From Dictyostelium discoideum (lineage: Eukaryota): a DNA stretch of 64,000 nucleotides. The position numbers and the translations under genes are program-made. Every line of letters begins with the position of its first letter. Position 1 is the stretch's first letter. Where the stretch lies: NCBI GenBank assembly GCA_000004695.1, contig CM000153.2, positions 4,448,001-4,512,000 on the forward strand, written 5' to 3'. The notes below the pieces were generated by a model. That model saw only the letters and a list, made by a program, of their open reading frames with translations. It searched no databases and was not told the DNA's origin. Below, one piece after another: positions 43,128-51,664 of this stretch.

Positions 43128-43400
43128 TCCAAAAAAAAAAATATGTAAAAAAAAAATATGCAAAAAAAAAAAAAATATGCAAAAAAAAAAAGAAGATCGA
43201 GAAAATAAAAAACCCCCAAAAAAACCGATAAAAAAATAAAAATATGCAAAAAAAAAAAAAAAAAAATAAAAAAATGAAGATCAAGGCAATGAAAAAGCGA
43301 CAAAAAAAAAAAACGATAAAAAAAAAAAACTACAAAAACATTTAGCATCTATAAGTCATTTAAAAAAAAAAAAAAAAAAAAAACTTCATTTAAGATTTTA

Positions 43401-45332
43401 TTAAAATTTAATATCTGTTTCTTCCAACTCTGTGAAATTTTTTTTATCTTTAAATATTTTTCTAGTTATTACTTTGCATTGATTACTTTTAATAACCAAA
43501 ACTAAAAGGATTATTAAAATTACAGATGGAATTAAAATTGATATTATAACTAAAATATTTTTTCTGGAAAATTTTGGATTTTGAGCATCCTCCTTATTTT
43601 CACCATTAATATCATTGCCACTACTATTACTACTATTACTACTACTACTACTACTACCATTATTAATACACACGCTAATACCATCTAAAGGTGTTGGGTT
43701 ATAAAATCCACTCCAATGAACATTGTTTTGAACAACTGATAATTCCAGATTATTATTATTATATTGGTAACAATAGATGTCTGATGGATAACATTCGACC
43801 ATATAGTCAGAATCTGCAACAATGTCACATTCTATTTGATTTACTTTAATAGTTAGATCATTTCGAAAAATTTCACTACCAAACCAACCATTTAATATTA
43901 ATAGATTACCAAGAGCACCTCGTTTAATTTCTTGTGAGGTAACCATAGTATTAGGTATATTACAATTTGAAGCAGTCCATTGAATAGTACAATTACATTG
44001 ACCAAATAAATAATCACAAATTCCACCATTACTACAACCTAATCCTTCATTACATAGTCTACCACTACAATCATCGAATATTCTATTTTCATTACATTCG
44101 CATTTACCATTAATATTATTACAAATACCACCACCATCATTATTACTACAATCTGATGAGCATTTCAATGGTTTTTGTTCACATTGATAACCTCTCCATT
44201 TATTGGAAAAACAATCACAGACTCCACTCTCTTTATTATATACACCTCCATTTTTTATATTACATACCGGAATTGGACAATTAATACCATTACAAATTTG
44301 ATTCAATTTGAAATTAAAACTATTCGATACATTCATAACTTGAACTAAACAATTAATTTCAATACTACTACTACTACTGCTGCTATCACTGTTACTATTA
44401 TTATTGATGATTTTATTTGAATTATAAAGATAACATTGAATTTGATTGAAATTACTTGATAATACTAAACAAAGTTCGTTTGAGATTAAAACATTGATAA
44501 CCGTATTATTATATGCAAAGTATTTACCATTGATAATGAAATAATCTGAATATCTAATAACTGAATCAATTTGTGGTATGAATTCATTATAAGCTGTAAT
44601 TTCAAAAGTTCTTGAACCTTGTGGTAAATATGGAAATGTAATATTGAATCCTTTTGGCATTGGACCAGTTACTCTATTATTCTTTGTAATTTCAAATAAT
44701 GTATTTTCAATTTTAATATTTTCTGCCCAAATATTTGGATTATCTAATTTGAATGATATACCAAAACCAAGATCTCTACCATATAGCATCAATGATTTAG
44801 TTTGATTATCATATGATAGATTTAGTTCAATAGTAGTACAATCTTCTAAATGGTTAATATCTAAATTTGTGAATCTATTACCATTAACAATTGCACTAGT
44901 AATTGGATTAAGGTAATGACAAACTACACATGATGGTGCTTTACCACCAATTAAATTATTACTAATATCGAAAGTTATTGAACACCAACTATCATCCATT
45001 TCACCTGTTAATTTATTATCATTTAAATATAACTCAAGTAAAACATCCATTGATTTAATAAAAGATGATGTTGGTAATTTACTGGTTAAACCATTAAATG
45101 ATAAATCTATTATATTTGTTTTCTCTTTGAAAATATTAAAATTGATTACACTTATATTTCCATTTTTCAATTGACTTTTGAAAAAAAAAAAATTAGTATA
45201 CTATTATTATATTTATCTTGTGTTTTAATTATTATTATTTTAAAATAGTTACAATGTATTTAAATTTGGTGGTAACACTGAAAATGGAAAGTTACCATTA
45301 ATATTGAATAAATTACCTGCCTTTGCAATATA

Positions 45333-45384
<52 letters not shown>

Positions 45385-45524
45385 AGGTAAATAAATATAG
45401 GCCTTAAAATATATATATAAAGAATAAAAACATACATTGCCGAATCATCAGGGTAATTTGAGAAGTCTATATAATCAATTGGTTTTTCAATTTGATACTC
45501 AATCGAACTATTATTTAATTAGTA

Positions 45525-45567
<43 letters not shown>

Positions 45568-46613
45568 TAATTAATAATAAATTAATTAATAATTAATAAT
45601 TAATAATTAATAATAATACTTACAAACCAGTATTTTTATTAATAGAAATTGGTATTTTAGTTAAGGCTATTGGAAATGGGTAGATATGTGATGGATCTGC
45701 TGATTTCAAGTTTAAACCTTCAATTTTTGAATAAGTTGAAAAATTAGAAAATGAATTTATGTCTGTACCTGGCAACAGAATAAATTGTCTAAATTATATA
45801 AATTAATACTGTCATTAATATCATTTTGGAAATATATAATTTAAAAACTATTATAAAATAAATAAAATAAATAAATAAAAATTTATGTACATACAATGTC
45901 ATGCCTTTAAAGTTATCCATGGATGGTATAGAGTGTGTGTATATTTGAAAAATTCGAAAATATTGGTTATCTGTTATTATGGAATGATCATTTATATCAT
46001 TTATATATTTGATTTTATATTTTGGTGCTAATGTTTGAGTTGAGAGAGAAAAATCTATTACATTCAAAAGATTTGATAAATAAATATTTAGAGGTCCTGA
46101 AAGGAATAATTTCACTGAAAGATTATTGAATGGTATTGTTTTATTTACACCACTATCAATATTAAATAATGTTGAATCACCATTAAGTAATGATACCATT
46201 TTCAATGATTCAGGAAATTTCCCTAATAAAAATTGATTTGTAACTCTGAATTTATCTATATTTCTATAATTTGATAAACATATGTTATTATTATTAGTTA
46301 TTAGTTATTATTATTAGTTATTATTATTAGTTATTATTATTAGTTATTATTATTAATATTTTTATTTTATAATGATATACATTGTATTTAAAGTTGAATA
46401 ACATTGAAAATGTTCAGGTGATAATAAATTTGCTTTATTTTTATGTGTTGCTCTTATATATATAACCGTTCTAGAAGTTTCATTGCAATGAATCACCATA
46501 TCCATTGGATGAATTGGAGTACCACAAAAATTATATCCATTGAATGAACTATCTATTCGATATTCAACAGATACTCGTGATATTATATTTAATAGTTTTA
46601 TTGTACAATTATC

Positions 46614-49240: not shown

Positions 49241-49294
<54 letters not shown>

Positions 49295-50252
49295 TTAAAA
49301 TAGTTACAATGTATTTAAATTTGGTGGTAACACTGAAAATGGAAAGTTACCATTAATATTGAATAAATTACCTGCATTTGTAATAAATCTGTTTTTTTTT
49401 TTTTTAAAAAAAAGGTAAATAAATTTAGGTTTAAAATATATATATATATATTAAAAACATACATTCCCTCCACCAAATCATCATCAGAGTAATTTGACAA
49501 GTCTATATAATCAATTGGTTTTTTAATTTGATACCCAATCGAACTATTATTTAATTAGTAAATAATAATAATTATTAGTAATAAATAATTAATAATTAAT
49601 AATACTTACAAACCAGTATTTTTATTAATAGAAATTGGTATTTTAGTTAAGGCTATTGGAAATGGGTAGATATGTGATGGATCTGCTGATTTCAAGTTTA
49701 AACTTCTAATTTTTGAATAAGTTGAAAAATTAGAAAACGAATTTTGGTCTGTACCTGGCAACAGAGTAAATTCTCTAAATTATATATAAATTTTTTATAT
49801 TAATATTATTTTGGAAATATATTATTTAAAAATTATTATAAATAAATAAAATTTAAATACATACAATAAACCACCTTTTAAGTTATCCATGGATGGTATA
49901 GAGTGTGTGTATATTGGAAAAATTCGAAAATATTGGTTATCTGTTATTATGGAATGATCGTTTATATCATTTATATAGTTGATTTTATATTTTGGTGCTA
50001 ATGTTTGAGTTGAGAGAGAAAAATCTATTACATTCAAAAGATTTGATAAATAAATATTTAGAGGTCCTGAAAGGAATAATTTCACTGAAAGATTATTGAA
50101 TGGTATTGTTTTATTTACACCACTATCAATATTAAATAATGTTGAATCACCATTAAGTAATGATACCATTTTCAATGATTCAGGAAATTTCCCTAATAAA
50201 AATTGATTTGTAACTCTGAATTTATCTATATTTCTATAATTTGATAAACATA

Positions 50253-50334
<82 letters not shown>

Positions 50335-50779
50335 ATTTTATATTAACATACATTTTATTTAAAGCTGAATAACATTGAAAATGGTCAGGTGATAATAAAT
50401 TTGTTTTATTTTTATGTGTTGCTCTTATATGTCTAACCGTTCTAGAAGTTTCATTGCAATCAATCGAAAAATCGATTGGATAAATCGGGATACCACAAAA
50501 ATTATATCCATTGAATGAACTATCTATTCGATATTCAATAGATGCTTGTGATATTATATTTAATAGATTTATTGTACAATTATCTAAAAATAATAATAAT
50601 AATAATATTTTTTAAAAATACAATACATAAGTTAATATTAAAAAAATGATGATAATTACAATAAATAAATGAATGAATAAAAATAAAATACTACATTCTG
50701 ATTCAGTGAGTGGGTTTTGTGAATTTATTATTTTAATTGAAAATATAAATAATAAAAGTAAAATTAATATTCCTCTCAT
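47367..50779 (-). CDS. Near-identical tandem duplicate of the 43401..46850 gene (about 97% nucleotide identity). Exons on the minus strand: 50695..50779, 50352..50583, 49865..50233, 49609..49774, 49462..49542, 49317..49397, 47367..49164. Exon 4 carries an A6 run where the sister copy has A5, which shifts the frame, so this may be a pseudogene or a homopolymer sequencing error.
   Basis: Same exon architecture and splice signals as 43401..46850. The 3' exon ORF (598 aa) is intact and differs from the sister copy by a few substitutions and small Ser/Gly-run indels. Exon 5 carries a 9-nt insertion (DDDLVEG versus DDSA). In exon 4, …aataaaaaatactggtttGTAAGT (P6) versus …aataaaaatactggtttGTAAGT (P5), so translation would run …INKKYWF then out of phase into a stop in exon 5. 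Confidence 0.6.
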
Positions 50780-51664
50780 GATTTTAAATATTTCTTTAAT
50801 TGCATTTATCTAACATATTTTTTGTTTTAAAGTTTTTTTTTTCTTTTCTTTTTCTTTTTTTTTTTTATTGAACCATTTAAAATATTAATAAAATTGATAA
50901 GTGGGTGTTTTTGGTAAAAAAAAAAATAAAATAAAAAAAATAAAAATAAAATAAAATTAAAAAAAAAAAATAAAAGTTTTGGGAATTTAAAGGCAAAATC
51001 AATATTAATTGCCATTTTATTTTATTTTTTTTTTTTTTTAAGGAAGTATTTCATAAAAATGGTAAGGAAAATTACTTTTATTTTTTATTTTTTAAAAATT
51101 ATATATTCCACCATAAATTTCTTCTTTTTATTTGATTATTATTTTTTTTAATTTTTTTTTTCAACTTTTTTTTTTCAATTTTTTTTTTTAACTTTTTTTT
51201 TTCAACTTTAATATTACATTGATACTGGTGCTTTTATATTAATTATAAAATGATTTGAAACTAATTACAATGAAAACAATACCATAGAAACCTAAATAAA
51301 CAAAGTGATGTCAGTCAATATTGGTTTGTTTTACTTTCAAATAACACTTAAAAATTCAAATAATCCCATAACCCAGTAGTAGCAAAAATATCAGCAACAA
51401 CATCACCATCATCATTTTCGGTAATATTGAAAAACTAAACTCATCAACACCAATTATTTAATTTTATCACATCATTAAACCACCACCATCACAATCTTCA
51501 AACCCAACAATTCATCACCAAATTAGGTGTTACAATAATGAGTAATATTTCTCACAAGTCACTGTTTATATCGTCAAATAATGTTTTAATTTTTATTTTA
51601 ATTTTATATTTAAATTTATTTTATATATTTAGATTTTATTAATTAAAAAAAAAAGTTTAAACAG

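Follow-up and report, generated by a model that had tools for sequence, protein, structure and literature searches.

A tandem gene pair of mosaic divergence in a ComC-like array on chromosome 4 of Dictyostelium discoideum, probably an older duplication patchily homogenised by gene conversion

A stretch of 64,000 nucleotides from chromosome 4 of Dictyostelium discoideum (assembly GCA_000004695.1, contig CM000153.2, positions 4,448,001 to 4,512,000; hereinafter referred to as the window) carries an array of five paralogous genes, E, D, C, A, and B in window order, all encoded on the minus strand. Genes A and B, each together with its promoter, form two tandem units. The pair is probably (at a probability of roughly 60%) the product of an older duplication that gene conversion has homogenised in patches, mostly from A to B and in one tract from D to B; it would have been kept in the lineage of the natural isolate NC4, and elsewhere lost or never inherited.

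Units A and B formed a direct head-to-tail repeat (blastn E = 0; 4049 aligned columns), and an intact seven-exon gene was present in each, confirming the tandem duplication of a complete family gene given in a preliminary description of this DNA. Within the unit, 3523 columns matched, 214 were substituted, and 27 indel events accounted for 311 gap columns, corresponding to a substitution identity of 94.3% (87% with gaps counted). Exons were 96.5%, introns 90.8%, and the promoter flank 84.1% identical, and the two proteins differed at 81 of 937 aligned positions. These counts do not agree with the earlier impression of units near-identical across coding and non-coding sequence, promoter-side flanks included. 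The further statement that the differences lie mainly in homopolymers and microsatellites holds for most length differences, since the majority of the indel events were changes in the length of (ATT)n, (AAT)n, or poly-A runs in introns and promoter, but not for the divergence as a whole. The 9-nt indel described for exon 5 was found as an in-frame insertion in B (GATTTGGTG), and exon 7 contained additional coding indels of 3, 18, and 3 nt.

Divergence was distributed along the unit as a mosaic. Substitution-free tracts of 437, 288, 271, 203, 165, 143, 124, and 120 bp covered 1751 of the 3737 ungapped sites (the three longest are located in Table 1). When the 214 differences were placed at random (5000 permutations), the longest tract expected by chance was ~100 bp; it did not exceed 139 bp in 95% of the permutations, nor 232 bp in any. 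The near-identical share of the unit amounted to ~1.4-1.75 kb and the diverged share to ~1.5 kb. The uniformly low divergence of an unmodified recent duplication was thus not found between A and B; the distribution was bimodal, and A grouped with its single-copy orthologue in the divergent segments.

This orthologue, present as the only copy in other D. discoideum strains (hereafter S), was compared with A and B segment by segment, with D. citrinum as the outgroup, in partitioned neighbour-joining trees (500 bootstraps per segment). From exon 1 to intron 2, A grouped with S (93% bootstrap), the A-B distance (dAB) being 0.100 and the A-S distance (dAS) 0.047. The body of exon 3 united A with B (100%; dAB 0.006, dAS 0.050-0.057), and from the end of exon 3 to exon 6 the grouping of A with S returned (90%; dAB 0.080, dAS 0.060-0.062). 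A and B were again united at 100% both in intron 6 with the 5' part of exon 7 (dAB 0.010, dAS 0.051-0.056) and in the exon 7 segment 44259-43640 (dAB 0.008, dAS 0.037-0.040). At the 3' end A was placed weakly with S (55%; dAB 0.073, dAS 0.038-0.048), and no resolved topology was obtained for the promoter partition in the neighbour-joining tree. The switching of topology between segments persisted after the single copy of a cryptic sister species (M) had been added. Among the sites variable in the three-way comparison, A and B agreed against S at 122, A and S against B at 147, and B and S against A at 67, and these patterns were clustered along the sequence (110 runs vs 159.5 +/- 8.5 expected; z ~ -5.9; 0 of 10000 permutations as low).

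Pooled over the divergent segments (1546 sites), dAB was 0.103, twice the distance of A to its single-copy orthologue (dAS 0.054), with branch lengths of 0.022 for A, 0.082 for B, and 0.033 for S. At the non-coding sites of these segments, dAB rose to 0.151, with branches of 0.027 for A and 0.124 for B. The pooled homogenised segments (1439 sites) gave a dAB of 0.006 and a dAS of 0.044. In these tracts the sequence shared by A and B lay at an ordinary orthologous distance from S (0.037-0.057), which fits A as the donor. A very recent unequal crossover, as first proposed for the pair, is not borne out: about 1.5 kb of the unit is 10% diverged (15% at non-coding sites), and there A stands with its orthologues at 90-93% bootstrap. 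The near-identical ~1.4-1.75 kb (0.6% diverged) find a better explanation in gene conversion.

The branch lengths bear on the age of the pair. In the divergent segments the A branch was comparable with the S branch, indicating that there the separation of A from B is of the same order of age as its separation from S. Scaled proportionally, the split of A and B in the divergent segments would be about 1.9 times as old as the split of strain AX4 from the isolates CR116C and OT3A, and the homogenised segments would date to about 1/7 to 1/9 of that split. Relative to D. citrinum, 48 derived states were counted in A and 62 in B (p = 0.18), a clock-like result that argues for age, not acceleration, as the cause of the long B branch. 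Derived states held in common with the single-copy strains made up 21 of the 48 in A vs 3 of the 62 in B (p = 1e-6). The 21 sites at which B retains the D. citrinum state were considered as clean synapomorphies of A and S, and were dropped as such on account of parallel A/T changes; distances, branch lengths, and the relative-rate test were used instead. Introns and promoter showed the long B branch no less clearly than exons did, and relaxed constraint on the protein therefore cannot explain it.

Copying between members of the array was also observed from a more distant donor. Within exon 7, B 48237-48480 was 97.6% identical to D 35365-35605 over the 241 nt of D, an 18-nt insertion (ATTGTAAATAATAATAAA) included, and B 48230-48480 was 87.6% identical to A. 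Orthologues of D from other strains were 91-94% identical to this D-derived block, and the B tract nests within their D-type sequences; the higher identity to D itself indicates that D-type sequence was copied into B within the NC4 lineage, the donor lying ~13 kb from B. Directly upstream of this tract, a ~290-nt block of exon 7 was nearly the same in four genes (B 48380-48640, A 44380-44650, C about 40640-40900, D about 35500-35760) and encodes ...PMPKGFNITFPYLPQG.RTFEITAYNEFIPQIDSVIRYSDYFIINGKYFAYNNTVINVLISNE... In ~150 alignment columns within it, the AX4 paralogues differed by 1-3% and the D. citrinum orthologues by 6-8%; outside the block the array genes were 20-50% diverged. It looks like the product of array-wide concerted evolution or gene conversion, or like an unusually constrained nucleotide element. 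Interlocus gene conversion in the array is thus indicated by over-long identity tracts, by conflicting segment topologies, and by an identified donor paralogue.

To compare copy number, homologous loci were taken by protein look-up from the assemblies of PRJNA1300491, a set of Nanopore and Illumina de novo assemblies of AX2-214, CR116C, OT3A, M4B, S6B, and D. citrinum strains (PMC12745789). The locus in the chromosome-level assembly GCA_054883475.1 (L001; inferred to be AX2-214) contained both A and B. Two diverged D. discoideum isolates (L002 and L005; inferred to be OT3A and CR116C) had one gene, S (932 amino acids), with the prefoldin flank on one side and C on the other. Upstream of S, the flank was collinear with that upstream of B, and downstream of S with that downstream of A. 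The cryptic sister species (L006) had one copy, M, the upstream flank of which matched window 51423-52215, and D. citrinum (L003, L004) had one A/B orthologue preceded by an older paralogue, X. Copy number therefore varies, with two in the NC4 lineage and one in three other lineages between the same flanks, and the structural instability suspected at this locus takes the form of structural variation. Both copies were seen in NC4-derived assemblies only (the window and L001).

Over 23.4 kb (window 33395-56875), the window and L001 were 99.77% identical, with 25 differences, mostly in homopolymer length, and just two of these, both homopolymers, fell within the A/B units. B was 100% identical to L001 6072-9485, and A differed in L001 only by the length of one intron poly-A run. 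The presence of both units in a second assembly with two homopolymer differences inside makes an assembly expansion unlikely. An artefact, be it false expansion of one gene or the merging of two alleles or strains, is very improbable: the region is ~80% A+T and rich in microsatellites, and the AX4 protein set in the database includes B (DDB_G0286437) and no equivalent of A, but the same units recur in what is presumably a de novo long-read assembly of AX2-214 (PMC12745789), D. discoideum is haploid, and 214 substitutions between the units together with a distinct flank for each argue against a mis-joined repeat. The question of assembly raised in the preliminary description is thereby answered, with the qualification that AX2 and AX4 descend from one natural isolate.

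The A-B homology ended straight after the stop codon (TAATAA) and, at the other end, ~430-460 bp upstream of the ATG, at ATAAAAGCACCAGTATCAATGTAAT. The A/T-rich filler that follows the stop codon of B had no counterpart downstream of A; a weak resemblance to sequence upstream of B was confined to its last 25-35 bp. No pre-existing repeat was detected at the duplication ends when the flanks were aligned with those of the single-copy strains, which points away from crossover between repeats; the join looks non-homologous or microhomology-based. Classical homologous unequal crossover is thus not indicated for the origin, as the breakpoints lie outside any pre-existing repeat; between them are 45-66 bp of filler. 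In the single-copy strains, the distal promoter was B-like, with a 36-bp segment missing from A, and the proximal promoter and gene were A-like. This pattern would fit a deletion by recombination between two promoter repeats, or an ancestral single copy with complementary decay in A and B.

Under an older duplication with later conversion, one unit, beginning ~450 bp before the ATG and ending with the stop codon, would have been duplicated through non-homologous or microhomology-based joining. This would have happened once D. citrinum had diverged, and no later than the separation of the NC4/AX4 lineage from isolates of the CR116C/OT3A type. Non-allelic gene conversion would later have overwritten B repeatedly with A-type sequence in the body of exon 3 and in most of exon 7 (~1.4-1.75 kb), and a 227-bp tract of B was copied from D. 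Conversion would have spared the promoter, exons 1-2, the stretch running from the end of exon 3 to exon 6, and the 3' end, which keep the older divergence. The single-copy isolates may have lost B, for example by recombination between the promoter repeats, or may descend from an ancestral haplotype that was never duplicated. The mosaic, the alternating topologies, the D-to-B tract, the difference in copy number, and the intact reading frames are direct observations; the direction and timing of the conversions, and loss as opposed to lineage sorting, are interpretation.

Several points weigh against this account. With three lineages single-copy and only NC4 two-copy, parsimony on copy number alone favours a lineage-specific gain, and one natural isolate with the duplication was sampled, AX4 and AX2 both being derived from NC4. 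Parallel A/T changes in B and D. citrinum, in a genome of ~20% G+C, could account for about half of the 21 states that A holds in common with S (~10 by a rough estimate for the 5' region). The overall synonymous divergence (Ks) between A and B was 0.033, under the 0.085-0.10 found between A and S; the low value reflects the large share of coding sequence that falls within homogenised tracts. Finally, 16 non-synonymous vs 1 synonymous difference between A and B in exons 4-6 could mean fast evolution of the B protein instead of age.

The alternative that survives best, though distinctly less probable, is a recent duplication assembled from two diverged alleles, by unequal non-homologous exchange in a heterozygous zygote or by later allelic exchange, with the mosaic recording earlier allelic recombination. 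It accords with the restriction of the second copy to the NC4 lineage, the three others being single-copy between the same flanks, and with the normal orthologous distance of the shared A and B tracts from S; moreover, sexual reproduction occurs in D. discoideum, and macrocysts form in crosses of AX2 with CR116C and OT3A (PMC12745789). However, alleles 10-15% apart in places and identical elsewhere would be needed, a divergence deeper than that of AX4 from the most distant interfertile isolates sampled, and no B-type single-copy allele was found in any sampled genome. A protein search with the N-terminal 351 amino acids of B for a donor or a B-type allele returned only paralogues of 39-55% identity, and this search missed even A. 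Ectopic conversion, furthermore, does happen in the array, as seen from the D-to-B tract and the array-wide block.

A very recent duplication, as proposed in the preliminary description, but followed by patchy, fast divergence of B under relaxed or diversifying selection or by micro-conversions from family members, is unlikely. In its favour, 78 non-synonymous and 18 synonymous differences separate A from B, and the ratio of non-synonymous to synonymous divergence (Ka/Ks) was 1.08 for this pair vs 0.36-0.42 for orthologous pairs (78:18 vs 78:52, Fisher p = 0.0008; second comparison, p = 0.002). The low A-B Ks also agrees with it, and at least one divergent block of B does stem from paralogue D. 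Against it, the B branch was longer still at non-coding sites, the relative-rate test gave no significant acceleration of B, and the A and S branches were of comparable length in the divergent segments. Micro-conversions from C or D as the source of the 5' divergence of B were rejected for want of enrichment, B-specific states matching C or D in 27-37% of cases vs 29-33% for S-specific states. 

The excess of replacements between A and B, counted on small numbers, fits relaxed constraint or diversifying selection on the leucine-rich repeat (LRR) part of one copy, but is proof of neither.

Table 1. Window coordinates of the tandem units, the array genes, and the segments and tracts compared.
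Feature	Position	Strand	Remarks
Unit A	43398..47297	-	~450 bp promoter and gene A; blastn self-alignment vs 47364-51250, global alignment
Unit B	47364..51250	-	~470 bp promoter and gene B; blastn self-alignment, global alignment
Gene A	43401..46850	-	926 amino acids, 7 exons; spliced translation equals P0001 (ACTFIT_005391) exactly; Pfam matches
Gene A exons	46850-46763, 46612-46381, 46263-45895, 45788-45624, 45507-45436, 45333-45253, 45174-43401	-	
Gene B (AX4 DDB_G0286437)	47367..50779	-	937 amino acids, 7 exons; intact open reading frame
Gene B exons	50779-50692, 50583-50352, 50233-49865, 49774-49610, 49543-49463, 49388-49308, 49164-47367	-	
In-frame 9-nt insertion GATTTGGTG, exon 5 of B	49471..49479	-	absent from A between 45443 and 45444
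Inter-unit junction, A/T-rich filler after B stop codon	47298..47363	-	45-66 bp; flank alignment with single-copy strains
Substitution-free tract, 437 bp (longest)	44759..45195 (= B 48749-49185)	-	end of intron 6 and 5' part of exon 7; A with B, 100% bootstrap
Substitution-free tract, 288 bp	46009..46296 (= B 49979-50266)	-	end of intron 2 and body of exon 3
Substitution-free tract, 271 bp	43930..44200 (= B 47899-48169)	-	exon 7; inside homogenised segment 43640-44259
Divergent segment, exon 1 to intron 2	46264..46850 (= B 50234-50779)	-	dAB 0.09-0.10 vs dAS 0.044-0.047; A with single-copy orthologues
Divergent segment, end of exon 3 to exon 6	45253..45949	-	dAB 0.08 vs dAS 0.05-0.06; A with S, 90-93% bootstrap
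D-derived tract, exon 7 of B (minimal)	48237..48463	-	227 bp; includes 18-nt insertion ATTGTAAATAATAATAAA
Donor block in paralogue D	35365..35605	-	sequence comparison with B
Paralogue C	39639..43127	-	array member next downstream of A; tblastn with P0005
Paralogue D	34591..38000 (approx.)	-	reading frame interrupted in window
Paralogue E (DDB_G0286431)	32269..34353	-	P0029 maps at 100%

The array lies between a severin-kinase-like gene and a prefoldin gene, in a window of ~20% G+C. The gene A model was obtained by splicing P0001 onto the DNA and that of B by transferring the splice sites of A; all GT-AG splice sites were conserved in both. The B protein matched P0031 exactly, is present verbatim in GenBank (ACTFIT_005390), and equals the AX4 model P0032 (DDB_G0286437) save for one additional predicted intron. 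AX4 proteins mapping at ~100% were DDB_G0286431 (32272-34353), DDB_G0286435 (35993-37655), and DDB_G0286437 (on copy B); these matches place the window on D. discoideum chromosome 4, in the AX4 reference or a near-identical strain derived from NC4. DDB_G0286435 spans only the N-terminal part of D. Among the database proteins, E, this N-terminal fragment of D, and B were thus represented from AX4, and no AX4 protein was found for A or C; these two may be flagged as pseudogenes, unannotated, or absent from the reference. A literature search for DDB_G0286437 returned nothing.

Both proteins matched LRR_ComC (PF24141; A 55.5 bits, B 51.0 bits vs a gathering cut-off of 27) over profile positions 2-287/288, followed by a single TIG match (26.1 and 26.7 bits vs 20.9). 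Beta-sand_ComC_2nd (22.3 bits) and EGF_TEN (32.7 bits) stayed under their cut-offs of 27 and 65, respectively; the Cys-rich, epidermal growth factor (EGF)-like region is putative, with CxCxxxxxGxxC-type motifs visible in the sequence. Hydrophobic stretches were seen by eye in the A and B translations at the N-terminus (MRGILILLLLFIFS) and near the C-terminus (ILVIISILIPSVILIILLVLVI), as a putative signal peptide and transmembrane segment. By their Pfam matches, A and B are ComC-like, putative type I membrane proteins.

Decaying members (D and E) stand beside intact ones in the array. A stop between 35040 and 35047 breaks the large exon of D. With 472 amino acids, E is truncated: it ends inside the array-wide conserved block and has neither the EGF-like region nor the transmembrane segment. 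C is annotated as an intact 939-amino-acid gene in L001. In the window, eight clustered single-base differences from L001 were located at 42984-43225, in the promoter and exon 1 of C; the window has G or C, and L001 has T at seven of the eight. Two of these changes turn the intron-1 donor of C from GTATGT (L001) into GCATGC (window). The cluster could consist of base-call errors in one assembly or be a real inactivating patch. Just downstream of C, a palindrome-like inverted repeat of ~715 bp (38599-39313) was 80.6% self-complementary, and the C-terminal 41 amino acids of the CR116C-type C protein (P0005) mapped to both of its arms; it could be a rearrangement scar or a mobile-element end. A/T-rich arrays at 53440-53950, 60196-60486, 39790-40065, 30340-30569, and 19855-20304 had periods of 9-12 nt or trinucleotide periods and cross-matched at 72-89%. 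They are ordinary Dictyostelium low-complexity DNA that yields spurious repeat families in the repeat finder.

The array also varied in the other genomes. Paralogue X of D. citrinum (L003 6190-9803, 946 amino acids; L004 6167-9745, 965 amino acids) lies directly upstream of the A/B orthologue and had no counterpart in any D. discoideum-clade locus examined; the D. citrinum genes further upstream differ too. B was considered as the orthologue of X and rejected, since X showed no particular affinity to B: its identity to A and to B alike was 66-70% in the 5' half and 79.5% in the 3' half. No remnant of a family gene was found by tblastx in the 3.6 kb that separate B from the prefoldin gene. The CR116C-type locus (L005 14076-19775) has a 1250-amino-acid gene model in place of AX4 D and E. 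In the cryptic species (L006 1533-9559), D is absent and the order is A-like, C-like, and E-like, the A-like and C-like genes having been merged by the annotators into one model of 1878 amino acids.

Concerted evolution of tandem paralogues by interlocus gene conversion is exemplified by the primate gamma-globin genes and the red and green opsin genes. The A/B pair is probably a further example of this known type of event. Like those cases, it is a direct tandem with near-identical tracts amid old divergence, segment-dependent topology, and varying copy number, and in its converted tracts the paralogues within a genome are closer than orthologues between species. Unlike them, the A/B tracts were recognised in one duplicated lineage, in a genome of ~20% G+C in which intron microsatellites add length differences.

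Among dictyostelid loci, tgrB1/tgrC1 differs from isolate to isolate through duplication, recombination, and the gain and loss of genes; gene conversion has been named among the generic diversification routes of recognition loci (PMC12745789). A and B would likewise be Dictyostelium surface proteins with a TIG domain in a clustered family, although they belong to another family (LRR_ComC, one TIG match, and a putative EGF-like region) on chromosome 4, and their turnover is far smaller, with one unit gained or lost and synteny otherwise kept, so that the likeness is one of locus behaviour only. Membership in the tgr (TIG-repeat) family, which is marked by multiple TIG/IPT repeats, was considered and rejected, since a single TIG match was found and the N-terminal half is LRR_ComC. 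The gene comC is specific to group 4 and encodes EGF domains, a signal peptide, and a transmembrane segment (PMC4931340). A and B resemble its product in LRR_ComC, the beta-sandwich/TIG part, and the putative Cys-rich EGF-like region, signal peptide, and transmembrane segment, but they are distant paralogues and not comC itself. It is rather doubtful that the chromosome-4 ComC-like array constitutes a second fast-diversifying Dictyostelium surface locus beside tgrB1/C1. In such a locus, variation would be reshuffled by duplication, by gene loss, and by patchwise conversion among the array members; diversifying selection would act on the extracellular LRR region of the additional copy, B (16 non-synonymous vs 1 synonymous difference from A in exons 4-6, and an overall Ka/Ks of about 1.1 vs 0.4 for orthologues); and the proteins might serve cell-cell adhesion or recognition in development.

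Paralogues may pass by eye for a recent duplicate and yet be an older pair partly homogenised by conversion, and dating such pairs by average identity or by identical tracts alone will give a wrong age. In practice, DDB_G0286437 has a 91%-identical neighbour without a counterpart in the AX4 protein set of the database, and the ~1.7 kb of identical tracts will cause cross-mapping of short reads, knock-out constructs, and expression probes. The copy number of A/B differs between the laboratory lineage and wild isolates, and the array, whose family of surface proteins is confined to group 4 dictyostelids, provides a compact, tractable case of concerted evolution.

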